The notes: generated by a model not told the origin, from the sequence alone. Positions 2,930-13,235 are shown, counted from the stretch's first letter. The stretch is 13,235 nucleotides of DNA from Candidatus Bathyarchaeota archaeon (GCA_963833125.1 CAWHWX010000036.1:1-13235), one strand, 5' to 3'. Numbers and translations: made by a program.

Positions 2930-3595
2930 CTAGGTGTCTTTGGCGTGCCAAAGATAGAGGGAGGCAATCGAGCAGTAGGGATGCCATCTCTTAGCGATCT
3001 CAGTTATCCTTTCGGCGTTTGGTAATTTGCGTAACGAGTAGACACTCTGGACCGACTTTTGTATTCCAAGATCATCGACAGGGAGCACATCGGGTCGTCC
3101 AAGTGTGAAAAGCAGAAACATATGCGCGGTCCACGGTCCTATTCCTTTAACTTCGTCAAGCTGGCGGGTTACTTCGTCGTCCGGCATGTGTTTGAGGTCG
3201 TGAAGATTCAATTGTCCCTCAAGAACTCTTGAGGTTAAGTCTTTGAGATAACGTATCTTCTGCGGCGACACCCCTGCTTTCCTCATCATTGGATCAGGAA
3301 CCTGCGCCAAACTGTCGGCATCAATTGCTTCGGAATTAACGATCGCTTTCAATCTTCCGAAAATAGTTCTTGCAACCAACCCGTTCAGTTGCTGGGAAAT
3401 GATGGCTTCTACTAAAGATTCGAATGGGTTGCCGCCATCTACTTGAAACTTAATTATTCCATGCTTCTTGATGAGAGGACGGATTCTTGCATCAGCCTTA
3501 GAGACGTGACCGACGCCCAATCGAAACGTGTGTGGATTGCCGATGCTTGGAAAGCGCGTCGAACTAACCCCACGTACCGGTTTCGATTCGTTCAT
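2930..3595 (-). CDS. alkA: DNA-3-methyladenine glycosylase II (HhH-GPD, AlkA family)
   Basis: '[13 protein letters not shown]', HhH 'VKGIGPWTA', catalytic Asp region '[11 protein letters not shown]', and '[13 protein letters not shown]'. Start may lie slightly downstream. Confidence 0.9.
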
Positions 3596-3674
3596 GGGCA
3601 GTAACTCACAGTCTCTGAATGAGGTGAAGATAGATATTGGTGCGGATGCTGATCAATCTGGCTGGATAAAAGAT

Positions 3675-4073
3675 ATGGCGGATAAGATGGTTAAGACGGA
3701 GGAAGAGTGGAAGCGCCTTCTAACTCCCGAGCAGTTTCATGTCGCGAGGAAGAAGGGAACCGAAAAACCGTTCACCGGAGCTTACTGGAACAGCCATGAC
3801 GCGGGTGTCTACGAATGCGTTTGCTGCGGCAACAACCTCTTCAGTTCAGAAACCAAGTTCGATTCACAAACCGGATGGCCGAGCTTCTCGACCGCGATCG
3901 ACCAGATCAACGTGAAGACAGAGACCGATGGGAGTCTCTTCATGAGACGCACCGAAGTGCTATGCAGTCGATGCGAGGCTCACCTTGGTCACGTGTTCAA
4001 CGATGGACCAAAACCAACCGGGCTTCGCTACTGTATCAATTCAGCTTCCCTGAAATTCCGCAAGGCAGAATGA
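3675..4073 (+). CDS. msrB: Peptide-methionine (R)-S-oxide reductase MsrB, zinc-binding type
   Basis: GTEKPF, two CxxC (CVCC, CSRC), [15 protein letters not shown] and catalytic RYCINS. Start moved from 3528 to ATG 3675 ([12 protein letters not shown]), which removes the overlap with alkA. Confidence 0.95.
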
Positions 4074-4301: not shown

Positions 4302-5528
4302 TTGGGAGTTGTGCAGTCTCTCGTGTGCCGTCGGTGTGATGCTGAAAGTCCGCCGCAACGAACCATTTCATGCCCGCAATGCTTCGCTCCGGTCGATGTG
4401 ACTTACGACCTTGATTCCATCCGGCTTACTCATGATTCGTTTGATTCACGTGCGAAAACATTATGGAGATACAAGGAGCTGCTCCCAGTTCAGGATTCAA
4501 GGAATATTGTTGACCTAAACGCAGGTTTTACCCCTCTTCATCGTTGCAGGAATCTGGAACGACTTTTTGGACTGCGGGAGGTGTATGTGAAGAATGATGG
4601 TTTGAACCCAACTAATTCTTTCAAGGACCGACCTGCTTCTGTAGCAATCTCCAAGGCGATCGAATTCCAGCTGGGGGTTGTTGGCGCAGTCTCGACGGGA
4701 AATCTCGCAGCCGCAGTGTCGGCTCACGCAGCTAAGGCAAACTTGTCTTGCTACATATTCATCCCTGAAGGAATAGAGGTAGGCAAGATCGCCCAAATCA
4801 ACGCCTACGGCCCGCAAATACTGAGCATAAGAGGAACTTACGATGACGCTAACCGCCTCGCATACTTAGCCTCAGAGAGGTATGGCTGGGCGATTGCCAA
4901 CATAACCATGCGTCCCTACTATGTCGAAGGATCCAAGACCATGGCTTTCGAAGTTTGCGAACAGTTAGATTGGCAGGTTCCCGATCATTTGATTGTAGCA
5001 GTTGGAAGTGGCGCACTTATGCGAGCAATCTGGAAGGGATTCAACGAATTTCACAAAATTGGCCTAATCGGAGATTCAACCACGTCCATTCACGGCGCTC
5101 AAGCGTCGGGATGCGCTCCGGTTGCGACCGCTTTCGAGAACAACACCGAAAGGATTCGGCCCGTAGCAAAACCGGACACCATTGCTAAGAGCATCGCGAT
5201 AGGCGACCCAGGTGACGGAGCTTACGCCATAGAGGTTGCCAAGAGAACTAAGGGCACGATAGGTCAAGTGACCGATTCCGATATTCAAAATGCAATAACC
5301 CTTCTCGCATCCAAAGAAGGAATATTTGCTGAACCCGCGGGAGCCGTAACAATCGCTTTACTGAAGAAACTTGTCGACCAGGGACAGGTTCGTTCCGATG
5401 AAAGTGTCGTCTGCTGCGTGACCGGTAATGGGCTGAAATCTATCGAAGCTGTACCTCCCTCCAAGGAACGATGGCATAGCCTCGACCCAACTCTTCAAGC
5501 TTTGAACACTGTAGTAGGGAGCAGGTAA
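4302..5528 (+). CDS. thrC: Threonine synthase-like fold-type II PLP enzyme (annotatable as ThrC; candidate MetM-type O-phosphohomoserine sulfhydrylase)
   Basis: N-terminal CRRC...CPQC ribbon, 'LWRYKELLP', 'GFTPL', PLP lysine in 'NPTNSFKDR', 'STGN', 'EGSKT', 'EGIFAEPA' and 'VTGNGLK'. TTG start with GGTG 7 nt upstream. Family is certain; exact reaction is not. Confidence 0.85.
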   Translation: MGVVQSLVCRRCDAESPPQRTISCPQCFAPVDVTYDLDSIRLTHDSFDSRAKTLWRYKELLPVQDSRNIVDLNAGFTPLHRCRNLERLFGLREVYVKNDGLNPTNSFKDRPASVAISKAIEFQLGVVGAVSTGNLAAAVSAHAAKANLSCYIFIPEGIEVGKIAQINAYGPQILSIRGTYDDANRLAYLASERYGWAIANITMRPYYVEGSKTMAFEVCEQLDWQVPDHLIVAVGSGALMRAIWKGFNEFHKIGLIGDSTTSIHGAQASGCAPVATAFENNTERIRPVAKPDTIAKSIAIGDPGDGAYAIEVAKRTKGTIGQVTDSDIQNAITLLASKEGIFAEPAGAVTIALLKKLVDQGQVRSDESVVCCVTGNGLKSIEAVPPSKERWHSLDPTLQALNTVVGSR

Positions 5529-5534
5529 TTCATC

Positions 5535-5816
5535 ATGGGACAAGTTACGGTAAAACTCTACGGAGCTGCGGTCGAAGCGGCGAAACAACAGACGGAGATG
5601 GAAGTTGATGCGTCAAATGTTCGCGAACTCCTTAGCAGGCTCTGCGAGAATTTCGGCGACTCATTCAAACGAAAAATCCTTGACTCGAATGGTGCACCCC
5701 AGTCGTTCGTTAATGTTTACGTGAATAACACTGACATACGTCACTTGAACGACGTAGAAACGGAATTGAAGGATGGCGATGAAGTACTCATTCTTCCAGC
5801 CGTCGCAGGCGGTTAA
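5535..5816 (+). CDS. Ubiquitin-like sulfur carrier protein (MoaD/ThiS/CysO/SAMP family)
   Basis: 93 aa, beta-grasp pattern, ending 'FVNVYVNNTDIRHL...DGDEVLILPAVAGG' with a free C-terminal GG. Starts 6 nt after the thrC-like stop. Confidence 0.93.
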   Translation: MGQVTVKLYGAAVEAAKQQTEMEVDASNVRELLSRLCENFGDSFKRKILDSNGAPQSFVNVYVNNTDIRHLNDVETELKDGDEVLILPAVAGG

Positions 5817-5832
5817 GGAGGATACAATCGCG

Positions 5833-7038
5833 ATGGCCTCTAACACAGAAGACGTAACACAGTATCAACAGGCGGCACCTCCGGCCCAGACTAGCGACCT
5901 CTCTAAAGAGGAGATCAGTCGATACGGAAGACACCTCATCATTCCTGAAGTCGGCATCAGAGGCCAGAAAAAACTCAAGGCCTCAAGCGTACTCGTGGTC
6001 GGCGCGGGTGGACTTGGATCGCCCCTATGCCTCTACCTCGCCGCAGCAGGCGTGGGACGAATCGGTTTAGTAGACTTCGATCAAGTCGACCACAGCAACT
6101 TACAACGCCAAGTAATCTACTCCTCTCGTGACATTGGCCGTCCCAAATTGGAGGCAGCGAAGGACCGCATACTGGAAATCAACCCCAACACAAAAGTCGA
6201 CAACTATGAGATTAGGTTAACATCTGAAAACGCCCTACAGATCATCAAAGGCTACGATGTCATAGTTGATGGGACAGATAATTTCCCGACCAGATACCTT
6301 GTTAATGACGCATGTGTTCTCCTTGGAAAGCCCAATGTGTATGGTAGCATTTTCAGGTTCGAAGGCCAAGTTTCAGTTTTCGACTCGAAAAATGGGCCGT
6401 GCTACCGATGCCTCTACCCAGAACCGCCGCCCCCGGGACTCGTTCCATCATGTGCGGAGGGTGGAGTTTTGGGAATACTCCCGGGAGTTATTGGAACACT
6501 CCAAGCAACGGAAACAACGAAACTAATACTTGGAAAGGGAACTCCACTCATCGGGCGGCTACTCCTCTTTGACGCCCTTAGCATGAGGTTCACGGAACTC
6601 AAACTGAAGAAGAACCTAGACTGCCCCATCTGCGGCCGTACACCGACCATCAAAGCTTTGATTGACTACGAAGCTTTCTGCGGCCTTCGCCGCGGAGAAC
6701 ATGCTTCAGCGTTGGGTGAAGAAAATGAGATAACGGTCACACAGCTCAAACAACTAATCGACAGCGGTGAACCCATCAACCTTATTGACGTAAGGGAACC
6801 ACACGAATATGAGATCTGCAGGATCGGAGGAAGCAAACTGATTCCCGCGAATGAGATTCCGAACCGCGTGAACGAACTAAGTCTGACTGACGAGTACGTC
6901 TTCCATTGCCACTTAGGCACAAGAAGTGCATCAGCAGTTAGCTTCCTGCGTCAGCTTGGTTTCAAGAATGTTAAGAACCTGAAAGGTGGCATTGACGCTT
7001 GGGCAAGCCAGATCGACCCTTCAATTCCCCGATATTAG
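5833..7038 (+). CDS. moeB: MoeB/ThiF E1-like adenylyltransferase fused to a C-terminal rhodanese domain (MoeZ/MoeBR architecture)
   Basis: 'RYGRHLIIPEVG', GAGGLG, 'SNLQRQ', 'DGTDNF', zinc sites CYRC and CPIC, 'SCAEGG', and rhodanese 'IDVREPHEY...CHLGTRS...LKGGIDAW'. Start moved to ATG 5833, which has SD AAGGAGGA at 5815-5822. Confidence 0.93.
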   Translation: MASNTEDVTQYQQAAPPAQTSDLSKEEISRYGRHLIIPEVGIRGQKKLKASSVLVVGAGGLGSPLCLYLAAAGVGRIGLVDFDQVDHSNLQRQVIYSSRDIGRPKLEAAKDRILEINPNTKVDNYEIRLTSENALQIIKGYDVIVDGTDNFPTRYLVNDACVLLGKPNVYGSIFRFEGQVSVFDSKNGPCYRCLYPEPPPPGLVPSCAEGGVLGILPGVIGTLQATETTKLILGKGTPLIGRLLLFDALSMRFTELKLKKNLDCPICGRTPTIKALIDYEAFCGLRRGEHASALGEENEITVTQLKQLIDSGEPINLIDVREPHEYEICRIGGSKLIPANEIPNRVNELSLTDEYVFHCHLGTRSASAVSFLRQLGFKNVKNLKGGIDAWASQIDPSIPRY

Positions 7039-7218
7039 CAATTCTCCTTATGAGATCCCTCCTTGAGAGTGGCTACGGTTGATCACTAGCATTCTTAGCA
7101 AACGCAGACGCTTTGTCTCATCAAATGGTTAGTCACGTCTACTTTACCGATAACAACATCAGACACGGGGTCCATCGAACGAGTTCTGAGTCTCTAAAAT
7201 GAGTAGCACGTGCCCAAT

Positions 7219-8248
7219 ATGAGAGTAATCATGATAGGTTTTGGGTCTGTCGGGAAAGCGTTTGTCGAAATAGTTAACAAAAGCTCAGAAATGCTAAGGA
7301 AGACTTACGGCATTGCTCCCAAAGTTGTCGCGATCGTAGATCGTGGCGGCGCGATGGTCAACCAGCAGGGCGTAGATTTTCAGGAAGCTATTGCGGCGCG
7401 ACTGTCCAGCGGATCGGTTGCTGGTCACAAAACTCTCGGGCATACAGGAACAACTGCATTGACCGCGATTGATGATGTTGAAGCTGACGTGCTTCTAGAA
7501 CTTACACCCACAACCTTGCCCGATGGCGAGCCGGGGCTTAATCACATCGAATCGGCTCTCAAGAAACGATTGAACGTAATTACAACGAATAAGGGTCCGC
7601 TCGCGGCTGCGATGCCATCGCTGCTTGAATTAGCGCGCTATCAGAGGGTAAGTCTCAGGTTCAGCGGAACTGTCGGAGGGGGCACCCCTTTTCTGAATTT
7701 CGCTAAAGAATGTTTGCCGGGTTGCAGAGTCGAATCGATCGAAGGAATTCTAAATGGTACGACAAACCATATTCTCACGCGTATGCTCGATGTGGGAATC
7801 ACATTCGACGACGCATTAAGGGAAGCCCAAGACTGCGGGGTATGCAGAGGCTGATCCAAGTTACGACCTAAACGGCTTGGATACCGCGAGCAAACTTGTC
7901 ATAATGGCGAACTGGATTATGGATAGAAGAGTGTCGATCAGAGATGTTGATGTCGAAGGCATCTCAAACGTAAGTACTCAAGATGTACAAAGCGCAAAAC
8001 GTTCGGAAAAAGCGATCAAGCTCGTAGGGGTGATAAACGACTCCGAGATATCCGTTCATCCACGGGCCTTATCTTTTGAAAATCCGCTTTGCGTGAAAGG
8101 TAGTTTGAACGCCGTTGTGTTCAACACGGATCTCGCGGGCCCAATAACTGTAACCGGCCGGGGAGCGGGAGGTAGGGAGACAGCTGGCGCCGTTCTGCGA
8201 GATCTAATTGACATAAAGAAGACTCTGTTGAGGTCAGATGACACTTGA
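7219..8248 (+). CDS. hom: Homoserine dehydrogenase, short archaeal type without ACT domain; one frameshift near 7837-7840
   Basis: GFGSVG, 'TTNKGP', 'GTVGGGTP', 'GILNGTTN'. Removing one G from GGGG 7837-7840 restores 'EAQDCGYAEADPSYDLNGLDTASKLVI' and joins ORFs 7210-7854 and 7877-8248 into about 342 aa ending with 'GRGAGGRETAGAV'. Confidence 0.9.
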
Positions 8249-9658
8249 GACTGGTTATGAAATTCGGTGGATCTGCCTTAGCTGATCCGCAGAGAATACT
8301 AAACGCCGTTGGAATCGTCAAGGAATACCAGTCTAACCAGCATCAATTGGTCGTCGTAACATCGGCCCTGCCCGAAGTCACTGACGAACTGGTCGCGATT
8401 ACTGAAAAGGCCACTGAACTGGACTCAGAAACTGTGGATGCATTTGTAGAAAGACAATTGGAACGCCACAGCACTACCGCAAGAAAGTGCATTCAAACTG
8501 CCGAAGTTCTACAGAAAGTCCTTATGGAGCTTGAAGAGACCGCAAAAGAATTGGCTGGCATACTGCAAAGTGTATCGCGCCTGAAGGAGCTCACGCCACG
8601 TTCGAAGGATTTCCTATTCTCTTTCGGAGAAAGACTGTCAACCCCTATTGTCTGTGGTGCGGCAACCGACTCTGGTCTCATAGCCCAATGGCTAACGGGC
8701 GGCAACGCAGGCATAGTTACCGATGAAAATTTCGGGGACGCCACTCCACTAATGGACATCACGAGTCGACGTGTGAAGGTAAAGCTCCAACCGCTGCTCG
8801 ATACCGGAAGCCTACCCATTATCGCCGGATATTCCGCATCAAGCCCCAATAGAATTACCACAACCCTCGGAAGGGGTGGGTCCGACTACACAGCAACAAT
8901 AATTGGTTCGGCTCTCGAGCACGGATGAGATCATACTCTGGAAAGACGTGGAAGGCCTCATGACAGCTGATCCAGCTATCGAACCTAACGCTAGGCTACT
9001 TCAGAGAGTATCCTACGCCGAAGCTAGTGAGATGGCATATTTCGGGACAAAAGCAATTCACCCTAGAGCTTTGGAGCCCGCAGTAGAAAAGAAGATTCCA
9101 ATCAGAATTAGAAACTTCTCTGATTCTACCAGCAAAGGAACCCTGATCACAAGCGATGCGCCGGAAAGAAAAGAGAACATCGTGAAAGCCGTCAGCTTAG
9201 TCAACAACGTTGCAATGCTAACCGTTGCCGGCAGTGGTATGGCTGGGTTACCGGGAGTTGCAGCCAAAGTTTTCAATATTCTAGCCGCCGAAGGCGTGAA
9301 CATCCTGATGATATCTCAAGGTTCCTCAGAAGCAGGAATCTCCTTCGTAATCACAAGAGACAAGTTGCATAGAGCAGCCAATGCATTAGAACTCGCAATC
9401 CTCGGTACGAAGCTGGTGAAGAACATAGTTTCAGAGAACGACATCTGTGTGGTCTCAGCGGTGGGTGCAGGAATGAGAGGAACCCCCGGAGTCGCGGCGA
9501 GAGTCTTCAAGGCCGTTTCGGATAAGGGACTGAACGTTAGGATGATTGCTCAGGGATCGTCAGAGCTAAACATTTCATTCGTCCTCGGGGAAAGGGACGG
9601 ACCTGAAGCCGTTCGAGCGATCCACGACGAATTTGGACTTGACAAGGATGGCAGTTGA
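8245..9658 (+). CDS. lysC: Aspartate kinase with two C-terminal ACT domains; one frameshift near 8917-8924
   Basis: 'VMKFGGS', 'SFGERLS', 'TTLGRGGSDYTA', then in the next frame 'DEIILWKDVEGLMTADP', 'EMAYFGTKAIHP' and two ACT repeats ('MISQGSSE', 'MIAQGSSE'). Deleting 1 nt gives about 470 aa. TTG start overlaps the hom stop (TTGA). Confidence 0.9.
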
Positions 9659-11600: not shown

Positions 11601-12441
11601 ATGCTGTCGATGTTGTTGGACTCGATTTCATTCATTGGTGGCGGCGTTATGGGGGAAGCAATGATCCAAGGGCTGCTGTCTAGGAAGACCGTGAAACCTA
11701 ATGGAATAATCGCCAGCGAACCAAGGAAGGAACGCCGCGAGGAACTGAAACGAAAGTATGGCGTCAAGGTCACTTCAGATAATCGTGAAGCTGTCAAGTC
11801 TTGTCAGGTCGTTGTGCTCGCGCTTAAACCTCAAGACCTAGAGGCCGCCATCACCGAGCTGAAAGGTTCCTTGCTGGCGAACCAAATGGTCATGTCGATC
11901 GTCGCGGGTGTGCGCCTCAAGACGATCAGTAAAGGCTTGGCACATGATGTGGTTGTACGAGTGATGCCTAATACGCCGGCTCAGATTGGCGAGGGGATGA
12001 GCGTATGGACAGCAACGCAGGGCGTGAGCCATGGGCAGCTTGACCAAGCAAGAACAATCTTGCAAGCCTTAGGTAAGGAGCGTTACATGAATGACGAAAA
12101 GTTCCTGGATATGGCGACAGCCGTCAGTGGCACGGGTCCCACATACGTATTTCTAGTTATGGAGGCCATGATCGATGCAGCAGTCCATCTAGGGTTTCCT
12201 AGACACATAGCCTACGAGTTAGTTACAGAGACCATGCGAGGCTCCATCAACTTCGCTATGAAATCGACCAAGCACCCGGCAGAACTACGCAACATGGTCA
12301 CATCTCCGGGGAGGCACCAGCGCCGCAGCCCTTTACCAATTGGAGAAGGGAAGTCTGCGCACGGTCCTTTCAAAAGCCATCATGGCCGCCTACGAGCAAA
12401 GCAAGTCTCTAGGAGAAGGTGGCTCCTCGGTTAAGGCTTGA
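11601..12441 (+). CDS. proC: Pyrroline-5-carboxylate reductase; one frameshift at 12308-12311
   Basis: 'FIGGGVMG', 'LALKPQ', 'SIVAG', 'RVMPNTP', 'TAVSGTGP'. Removing one G from GGGG 12308-12311 restores '[39 protein letters not shown]' ending at TGA 12439-12441. Start is ATG 11601 or 11610. Confidence 0.92.
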
Positions 12442-12504: not shown

Positions 12505-13235
12505 TCAGGGTTTCTGCGGCTGGTGAACGTGCGTCGCAGGAAGGTCGTACTGAAGGACGCCATAGACGGGCGTCAAGTACTTGCGATATTTATCGTTGGC
12601 ACCAGTTACGACCCGGTCGTACTCTTCGCCCAATCTGTAGTGTTATTCGGCCTGGTCTTCCATTTCCTACTGGTTTGCGATCAATGTTCAGTATCGGAGC
12701 TACTTCAGCAGCGGTGCCAGTGAAAAAGGCCTCCTCACAGGTGTATAGTTCAGCTCGGGCGATTGTACGTTCCTTGAAGGGCATGTCATCGTCCTTGATT
12801 AGATCTATGACGGTTTGACGGGTTATGCCGTTAAGGATGCCAGAGGAGGAAGTTGGTGTCGAAATGATCCCATCTTTAACTATGAAGATGTTTTCTCCCG
12901 TGCCTTCAGACACGTCCCCTTTATTGTCGAGGAACAATGCCTCGTCGAAACCTGCCTCAGCTGCTTCAGTTCTGGCGAGGACAGAATTGATGTAATGGCC
13001 GCAAGCCTTGGCGCTCCCTGGAACGGCCGGTTCACCAATACGGCGCCATGTTGAGACGCATATATCTAGTCCTGGTTTGTTTGCGTCGAAATATTTCTCG
13101 TATGGAAAGGCAATGATGCTGACGGAGGTTGGTGTGGCTCTTGCGTCGAGGTTTATTCCTCCTACACCTTTGAAGGCGATAGGCCTTATGTAGAGAGATG
13201 AATGGAAATCGTTCTTTTCTATAAGATCTGAAACT
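12505..13235 (-). CDS. ilvE: Branched-chain amino acid aminotransferase (fold type IV); 5' end outside the window; one frameshift near 12629-12631
   Basis: Frame is open from the window edge: 'LYIRPIAF', 'STWRR', 'AKACGHYINS', 'GFDEALFLD', 'SEGTGENIF', 'ILNGITR', 'EAFFTGTAAEV'. Removing one base gives the tail 'GEEYDRVVTGANDKYRKYLTPVY...' ending at TGA 12505-12507. Confidence 0.92.

Follow-up and report, generated by a model that had tools for sequence, protein, structure and literature searches.

In the CysM/CysO/MoeZ/Mec system of Mycobacterium tuberculosis, a thiocarboxylated ubiquitin-like carrier delivers sulfur to a fold-type II enzyme that depends on pyridoxal phosphate (PLP) and acts on an O-phospho amino acid, and the E1 enzyme is fused to a rhodanese domain. 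A thiocarboxylate route to homocysteine in Wolinella succinogenes, HcyS/HcyF/HcyD/MetY, is said to have been described by Krishnamoorthy and Begley in 2011, and reportedly uses a MetY-type enzyme of the Cys_Met_Meta_PP family with O-acetylhomoserine as the substrate. A third system is known from Streptomyces: Table 2 of GapMind 2026 records experimental evidence for MetM, MetO, MoeZ and Mec, with reference to Hasebe et al. 2024 (Appl Environ Microbiol 90:e0124724). A 2026 bioRxiv preprint places the route "in some Streptomyces", and mSystems 2025 describes an S-adenosylmethionine (SAM) riboswitch upstream of metM in S. albulus. Here we consider an operon of an uncultured soil archaeon, Candidatus Bathyarchaeota archaeon, on a contig of 13,235 nucleotides (GCA_963833125.1, CAWHWX010000036.1:1-13235; hereafter the window), which encodes a PLP enzyme of the threonine synthase (ThrC) family, a sulfur carrier and an E1-rhodanese fusion. 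We put at roughly 0.78 the probability that this operon encodes a homocysteine-making system of the MetM/MetO/MoeZ type. The MetM/MetO pathway is already published, and read in this way the operon is an archaeal and self-contained member of it, with enzyme, carrier and E1 beside hom and ask.

The three core genes are tightly packed on the plus strand (4302-7038). The first (4302-5528, with a TTG start) encodes a MetM-type ThrC-family PLP enzyme of 408 aa (PALP, 243.8 bits in Pfam), a candidate carrier-thiocarboxylate-dependent homocysteine synthase. Its N-terminus is a four-cysteine zinc ribbon, of which C9, C12, C24 and C27 are invariant in an alignment of 30 homologues; likewise invariant is K108, which aligns with Lys61 of the Thermus thermophilus ThrC structure 1UIM, so that the PLP lysine is kept. 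After 6 nt (5529-5534) follows the gene for a 93-aa MetO-like carrier of the ThiS/MoaD beta-grasp family (5535-5816; ThiS, 56.1 bits in Pfam), which has a Gly-Gly end (...PAVAGG) and scores 58.5 bits against TIGR01687 moaD_arch, above the cut-off of 49.5. An alignment with 27 carriers (one from Streptomyces) whose genes follow MetM-type genes extends over the whole of the window carrier, and N60, P88, G92 and G93 are invariant in it. A further 16 nt (5817-5832) separate it from the gene for a MoeZ/MoeB-like E1 adenylyltransferase of 401 aa with a C-terminal rhodanese domain (5833-7038; an alternative ATG start at 5773 would give 421 aa), in which ThiF covers residues 31-265 (287.2 bits) and Rhodanese residues 301-392 (71.9 bits). 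The fusion passes the MoeB model NF006444 (468.9 bits against a cut-off of 449) and the subfamily model NF004281, and falls below the MoeZ equivalog NF005902 (507.1 against 647) and NF005646 (559.3 against 633); it is probably MoeZ-like in its working. By tblastn it is the sole such fusion located in the genome. An earlier note on this DNA, made from the sequence alone, had described the trio, its two short gaps and co-oriented hom and ask genes downstream, and this layout is confirmed by the open reading frames (ORFs) and Pfam matches.

Anchors for the MetM side were sought in public genomes by a scan with a DNA motif coding for the conserved zinc-ribbon peptide. Among the 80 loci obtained were two Streptomyces genes, from S. 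albireticuli and Streptomyces sp., each with a SAM riboswitch upstream and a carrier gene downstream; since both features match the mSystems 2025 account of S. albulus metM, these orthologues were taken as MetM anchors. An IQ-TREE phylogeny was built from 59 ThrC-family rows: of 124 trimmed ORFs, 38 representatives below 70% identity and three others were taken, and a sample of the Bathyarchaeia class supplied the remaining 18. Of these rows, 43 form a MetM-like clade (support 100/99), which holds the window enzyme, three Bathyarchaeia orthologues grouped with it, and all of the bacterial carrier-linked enzymes, including the two Streptomyces genes. Another 12 rows make up a canonical ThrC clade (also 100/99) that includes the thrB-linked ThrC of the same archaeal genome along with ThrCs of Streptomyces and Thermodesulfovibrio. 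Forcing the window group, which was chosen after inspection of the tree, onto canonical ThrC costs 48.5 lnL, with p = 1.6e-5 in the approximately unbiased (AU) test, and the enzyme thus stands apart from the true threonine synthases, as the earlier note had expected.

The two clades also differ in their residues. We listed in the present analysis 17 positions at which the 43 MetM-like rows are conserved to 90% or more and the 12 ThrC rows show a different conserved residue, and the window enzyme has the MetM-type residue at all 17. Alignment to 1UIM places L135, Y207 and R204 of the window enzyme at Thr88, Arg160 and Asn157, respectively. We take Thr88 and Arg160 of the Thermus enzyme to be phosphate ligands, the retained phosphate directing water to C-beta; provided that this role is right, the phosphate site of the MetM clade would appear to have been remodelled.

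Gene context provides a second line of evidence. ThrC-family ORFs were typed by 11 of the 17 residues, and a carrier was counted where a ThiS-like ORF ended 150-1100 nt downstream on the same strand; none of the typed loci had been picked on carrier presence. A carrier follows the enzyme gene in 101 of 112 assessable MetM-type loci (the window included), in none of 20 ThrC-type loci and in none of nine loci of other types (L056 included). Because the enzyme-carrier pair recurs in so many loci, and these span many phyla, the arrangement is far from chance. Of the gene trio described in the earlier note, the enzyme-carrier pair is conserved; the linkage to E1, hom and ask varies. The C-termini of the 101 carriers are GG in 66, GG plus one residue in 11, GG plus two residues in 15 and otherwise in nine. 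A riboswitch scan that took in 20 of the 80 motif-scan loci found a SAM riboswitch (RF00162, 62-93 bits) just upstream of the enzyme gene in all ten actinobacterial loci and in none of the ten from other phyla; in the window there is none, and no Rfam family reached its gathering score there. JAMM genes homologous to one on contig C34 of the archaeal genome adjoin the MetM-like gene in three loci (L048, L052 and L219). The conserved context links the MetM-like family to methionine.

Two other Bathyarchaeia loci have the carrier fused in frame to another protein, as ThiS-ThiF of 442 aa (L205:2724-4052) and as ThiS-CysK of 404 aa (L204:2725-3939; cysK, 457 bits). For the carrier to be released from such a fusion, the chain would have to be cut behind the GG, unless the fusions are artefacts of assembly.

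Homology to the described systems suggests how the encoded pathway might proceed. The E1 domain would adenylate the C-terminal glycine of the carrier, and the fused rhodanese domain would supply persulfide sulfur to give carrier-Gly-Gly-COSH. The ThrC-family enzyme would eliminate phosphate from O-phospho-L-homoserine, the product of Ask, Hom and a ThrB encoded elsewhere, and the thiocarboxylate would then add at C-gamma in place of water at C-beta. Homocysteine would be released as such, or a JAMM hydrolase whose gene lies elsewhere would cut it from a carrier-homocysteine adduct; a MetE-like pair would then methylate it to methionine. The earlier note had likewise proposed that E1-rhodanese, carrier and PLP enzyme produce homocysteine from a substrate supplied through Ask and Hom, and comparison with the known systems supports this.

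The closest likeness is to the S. albulus MetM/MetO/MoeZ/Mec system, compared here by way of its Streptomyces orthologues. The ThrC-family enzymes of the two belong to one clade and agree in the 17 residues, and each system has a GG carrier encoded directly downstream, an E1-rhodanese activator and a presumed conversion of O-phosphohomoserine to homocysteine. The differences are that the window's host is archaeal, that its E1-rhodanese lies inside the operon and is followed by hom and ask, that there is neither a SAM riboswitch nor a linked JAMM/Mec gene, and that the enzyme is only 42% identical to the Streptomyces orthologue; moreover, nothing follows the GG in the window carrier, whereas the carrier of Streptomyces locus L103 has a Cys after it. 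The M. tuberculosis CysM system is alike in its thiocarboxylate donor, fold-type II PLP enzyme and E1-rhodanese; in contrast, the window enzyme belongs to the ThrC rather than the CysK/CysM family, and gamma-replacement on a four-carbon substrate would take the place of beta-replacement on O-phosphoserine. The Wolinella route shares the origin of homocysteine sulfur in a protein thiocarboxylate, but the window enzyme is ThrC-like, and neither MetX nor MetA was found in its genome. With canonical ThrC (TIGR00260; 2ZSJ, 6CGQ, 2D1F and 1UIM) the window enzyme shares its fold, PLP lysine, S-T-G-N loop and, probably, the substrate O-phosphohomoserine, whereas its clade is separate and the equivalents of Thr88 and Arg160 are replaced. 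The N-terminal zinc ribbon is extra relative to the solved ThrCs, structure alignments starting at query residue 53-55; the canonical ThrC of the same genome also has an N-terminal extension. A sequence search of the PDB found no MetM structure.

The genome to which the window belongs, as contig C36, comprises 3.07 Mb in 39 contigs; its completeness is 87.8% and its contamination 7%. The nearest relatives that bear a name are metagenome-assembled genomes of Bathyarchaeia, whose enzyme is 74-79% identical to that of the window, and the host is accordingly archaeal, as the earlier note had supposed. Three ThrC-family genes are present: the window gene (277 bits), a canonical one (331 bits) and a divergent third. 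The canonical ThrC (394 aa; TIGR00260, 331 bits) directly adjoins a thrB-like gene elsewhere in the genome, so the second, canonical thrC that the earlier note had thought worth looking for does exist. A MetE-like pair and a CysK-like gene are also encoded, as are four PF14464 JAMM matches outside the window and nine ThiS-family matches. Searches of the genome, at its completeness of 87.8%, turned up no MetX, MetA or HcyBio. The earlier note had held that homocysteine would be made here without MetA/MetX, MetB or MetY; the searches agree with this for MetX and MetA, but a gene of the MetB/CGL family is present, as described below.

The third ThrC paralogue (G000:C1:15534-16406; L003:1417-2568, minus strand) groups with an Anaerolineae protein, L056, in a clade apart (100/100). 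It lacks a carrier as well as both the MetM-type and the ThrC-type signature, its neighbours are an amidohydrolase gene and a cyclophilin-like gene, and it looks broken in this genome.

Distribution within the host lineage was assessed in a Bathyarchaeia class sample of 151 genomes, with an orthologue defined by at least 50% identity and at least 426 bits and two fragmentary matches excluded. Besides the window's own genome, 21 genomes have an orthologue, all other matches being at most 45% identical. The carrier is present in 19 of these 21 loci (in two as the fusions mentioned above), E1 in nine, and hom is adjacent in three; linkage to E1, hom and ask therefore varies among the relatives. 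In a family sample of 59 genomes, the orthologue is confined to the window's genus, where six of 23 genomes have it and where MetX and HcyBio were each found in 0 of 23. The closest relative (L238; G189:C1:178500-192500) has the pair, 89% and 83% identical to that of the window, in an unrelated neighbourhood between a Dak1 gene and genes for a KaiC-like protein and a helix-turn-helix regulator, with no E1, hom or ask there. Because this relative keeps the pair without the other genes, we regard enzyme and carrier as the conserved core, and these two genes seem to travel together.

Several observations weigh against a MetM-type function. (i) The MetM-side anchors are orthologues and not the characterised S. 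albulus protein itself, and the window enzyme is hardly closer to the Streptomyces orthologue (42%) than to the ThrC of its own genome (40.5%). (ii) It passes the threonine synthase cut-offs of TIGR00260 (276.8 bits against 167.1) and NF006050 (312.2 against 303), and mSystems 2025 reports a cyanobacterial homologue 51.6% identical to MetM as a threonine synthase/deaminase that brought no rise in methionine. (iii) Contig C19 carries a gene of the cystathionine gamma-synthase/lyase (MetB/CGL) type (G000:C19:212708-213832; NF005871, 532 bits against 513), which could support a plant-like transsulfuration of O-phosphohomoserine; the plant route is mentioned in the 2026 bioRxiv preprint. (iv) A PF14464 search found no JAMM gene in the window. 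(v) hom and ask are frameshifted in the window assembly, the ask site being seen in that assembly alone. (vi) The pair occurs in only six of the 23 genus genomes while MetX and HcyBio occur in none, so that the genus must have another route or need methionine supplied. (vii) HcyBio is also found in 14 of the 21 other Bathyarchaeia with the orthologue, and at the class level a complementary distribution was not seen (14 of 21 genomes with the pair, against 74 of 151 in the whole sample).

With regard to point (vi), each of the six genus genomes with the pair has exactly one Cys_Met_Meta_PP gene, whereas 10 of the 17 without it have at least two. This comparison, made among related and hence not independent genomes, suggests that genomes without the pair may use an alternative transsulfuration route with two enzymes.

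A broader proposal goes beyond the MetM/MetO/MoeZ-type reading: that sulfur enters amino acids mainly through the trio in this Bathyarchaeia lineage, with homocysteine as the first product, formed on a protein thiocarboxylate, cysteine derived from it by reverse transsulfuration, and the MetM kind archaeal in origin. We regard this as unlikely. Its cysteine route would consist of a PALP protein with two CBS domains (467 aa; G000:C1:72327-73232; L239:1051-2454, minus strand), which has the architecture of a cystathionine beta-synthase, and the single cystathionine gamma-lyase-type enzyme. Together these are parts for turning homocysteine into cysteine, although the two could run transsulfuration either way. 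The archaeal origin is suggested because the Bathyarchaeia sequences form a basal grade of the MetM-like clade in which the bacterial ones make up a single nested clade.

Among explanations that would replace the MetM/MetO/MoeZ-type reading, the one that survives best, though we think it improbable, is a carrier-dependent cysteine synthase that uses O-phosphoserine and carrier thiocarboxylate in the manner of CysM/CysO/MoeZ, or an enzyme that accepts both O-phosphoserine and O-phosphohomoserine. The architecture of fold-type II PLP enzyme, GG carrier and E1-rhodanese is the same; O-phosphoserine-using ThrC homologues exist, and the cysteate synthase model TIGR03844 matches the window enzyme weakly (89.9 bits). 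The fusion of a carrier to CysK in L204 indicates further that such carriers can serve cysteine synthesis. However, where a CysK-type enzyme shares an operon with the MetM-like one it is a separate gene, as in L204 and in all three Nitrospirota loci checked (L070, L077 and L141), which have cysK (447-463 bits), E1, the MetM-like gene and the carrier in that order. Similarly, in Thermodesulfovibrio loci (L038-L050) the MetM-like gene and the gene for a carrier with two residues after its GG are followed by a canonical thrC. Because cysK or thrC stands beside it as a gene of its own, the MetM-like enzyme of these loci is neither the cysteine nor the threonine synthase. The bacterial members, moreover, are under SAM riboswitches and not cysteine control, the window enzyme is linked to hom and ask and not to serine genes, and the genome already has its PALP and CBS-domain protein and its CysK-like gene. 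No CysK or CysM model is among the best 25 of 41 NCBIfam matches to the window enzyme, the best being all ThrC models.

The Nitrospirota and Thermodesulfovibrio loci also suggest that one carrier may serve both cysteine and homocysteine synthesis.

Somewhat less probable is that the window enzyme is an ordinary second threonine synthase, or a synthase/deaminase, that happens to lie beside a MoaD/MoeB pair with an unrelated task in molybdopterin or thiamine synthesis or in tRNA thiolation. The databases do label it 'threonine synthase', which is the automated label that the earlier note had predicted, it clears the NCBIfam cut-offs given above, its nearest solved structures are true ThrCs, and a Microcystis homologue is reported to have threonine synthase/deaminase activity. 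The sole E1-rhodanese fusion of the genome may in addition serve other carriers, given the nine ThiS-family matches. The NCBIfam threonine synthase models, however, match all three ThrC-family genes of the genome and put the carrier-linked genes of Streptomyces and Thermodesulfovibrio above their cut-offs too; they therefore cannot separate the MetM type from the ThrC type. Placement beside canonical ThrC is rejected by the AU test, all 17 discriminating positions are unlike ThrC, the association with a carrier is found across many phyla in MetM-type and never in ThrC-type loci, and the genome already possesses a canonical thrB-thrC pair.

We assign an equally small chance to the same chemistry with a different acceptor, which would yield another gamma-substituted amino acid or a cofactor precursor. 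The co-occurrence of the orthologue with HcyBio in two thirds of the other Bathyarchaeia that have it, and its patchiness within the genus, would both fit such an accessory role. The clade and all 17 signature residues are nonetheless common to the Streptomyces orthologues, the bacterial members are controlled by SAM riboswitches, the window enzyme is linked to hom and ask, and no biosynthetic-cluster genes lie near the locus.

The two genes downstream bear on a last question, whether the locus is functional. Separated from the trio by 171 nt (7039-7209) and on the same strand, hom (homoserine dehydrogenase, 7210-8248) is recognised by Homoserine_dh and NAD_binding_3 over ORFs 7210-7854 and 7877-8248, and ask (aspartate kinase with two ACT domains, 8245-9658) by AA_kinase and ACT over ORFs 8245-8928 and 8903-9658, which score 235 and 323 bits against NF004938; the hom stop overlaps the ask start by 4 nt (8245-8248). 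Although both genes lie where the earlier note had placed them, neither is a single open frame. By tblastn with the unbroken Hom and Ask proteins (338 and 473 aa) of the related Bathyarchaeia locus L032, the frame changes at 7829-7839 in hom and at 8919-8924 in ask, and all of the halves are still open and 55-66% identical to the intact homologues. A 198-nt contig from soil-metagenome run X1 (depth 2.9), 97% like the window with five other letters and derived from a related strain, has one letter fewer at 7834, and this absence restores the hom frame. An extra letter in the GGGG run at 7837-7840 had been considered and was rejected, as the X1 contig puts the extra letter at 7834. Within the same 13 kb, proC and ilvE carry one frameshift each, with halves open and conserved; the sites are at about 12300-12320 and about 12640-12660. 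Because these genes are frameshifted too, the X1 contig is without the extra letter, and hom is single-copy in the genome by tblastn, the likeliest explanation is assembly indel errors and not gene decay. That the frameshifts are real and the operon is a decaying, non-functional locus on its way out, as two frameshifts and the absence of the pair from 17 of 23 genus genomes might suggest, is the least probable alternative of all, given three intact core genes, well-conserved open halves of a single-copy hom and of ask, frameshifts in proC and ilvE, and a short-read contig that has hom in frame.

If the MetM/MetO/MoeZ-type reading is correct, it has implications for annotation. Bathyarchaeia are abundant, uncultured archaea of sediment and soil, in which the MetM-type gene is annotated as threonine synthase and the other two genes as MoaD and MoeB; because pipelines mislabel the trio in this way, methionine synthesis would be scored as missing in reconstructions. 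Recognition of the MetM-type unit would close the methionine gap for six of the 23 genomes in a genus without MetX, MetA-type or HcyBio genes in the genomes searched. The 17 discriminating residues offer a simple aid for telling MetM-type from ThrC-type genes, and the compact, self-contained operon of enzyme, carrier and E1 is convenient for reconstitution.

Finally, we note three minor observations. Directly upstream of the enzyme gene and on the same strand is a gene for methionine sulfoxide reductase B (3528-4073, plus strand; SelR, 181.6 bits), which is a further methionine-related neighbour. In Vicinamibacteria and other Acidobacteriota (L057 and L059-L067), there is a far-diverged ThrC-family enzyme, 31-34% identical to that of the window, which has the same WRY motif, a distinct signature and no carrier downstream, and which may represent yet another specificity. 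Lastly, a 6.3-kb contig labelled Candidatus Acidoferrum (L033, DASQZS010000237.1; also P0013) matches L032 in gene order and is nearly equal to it in identity to the window's enzyme, carrier, ask and hom proteins, and is probably a misbinned archaeal contig.

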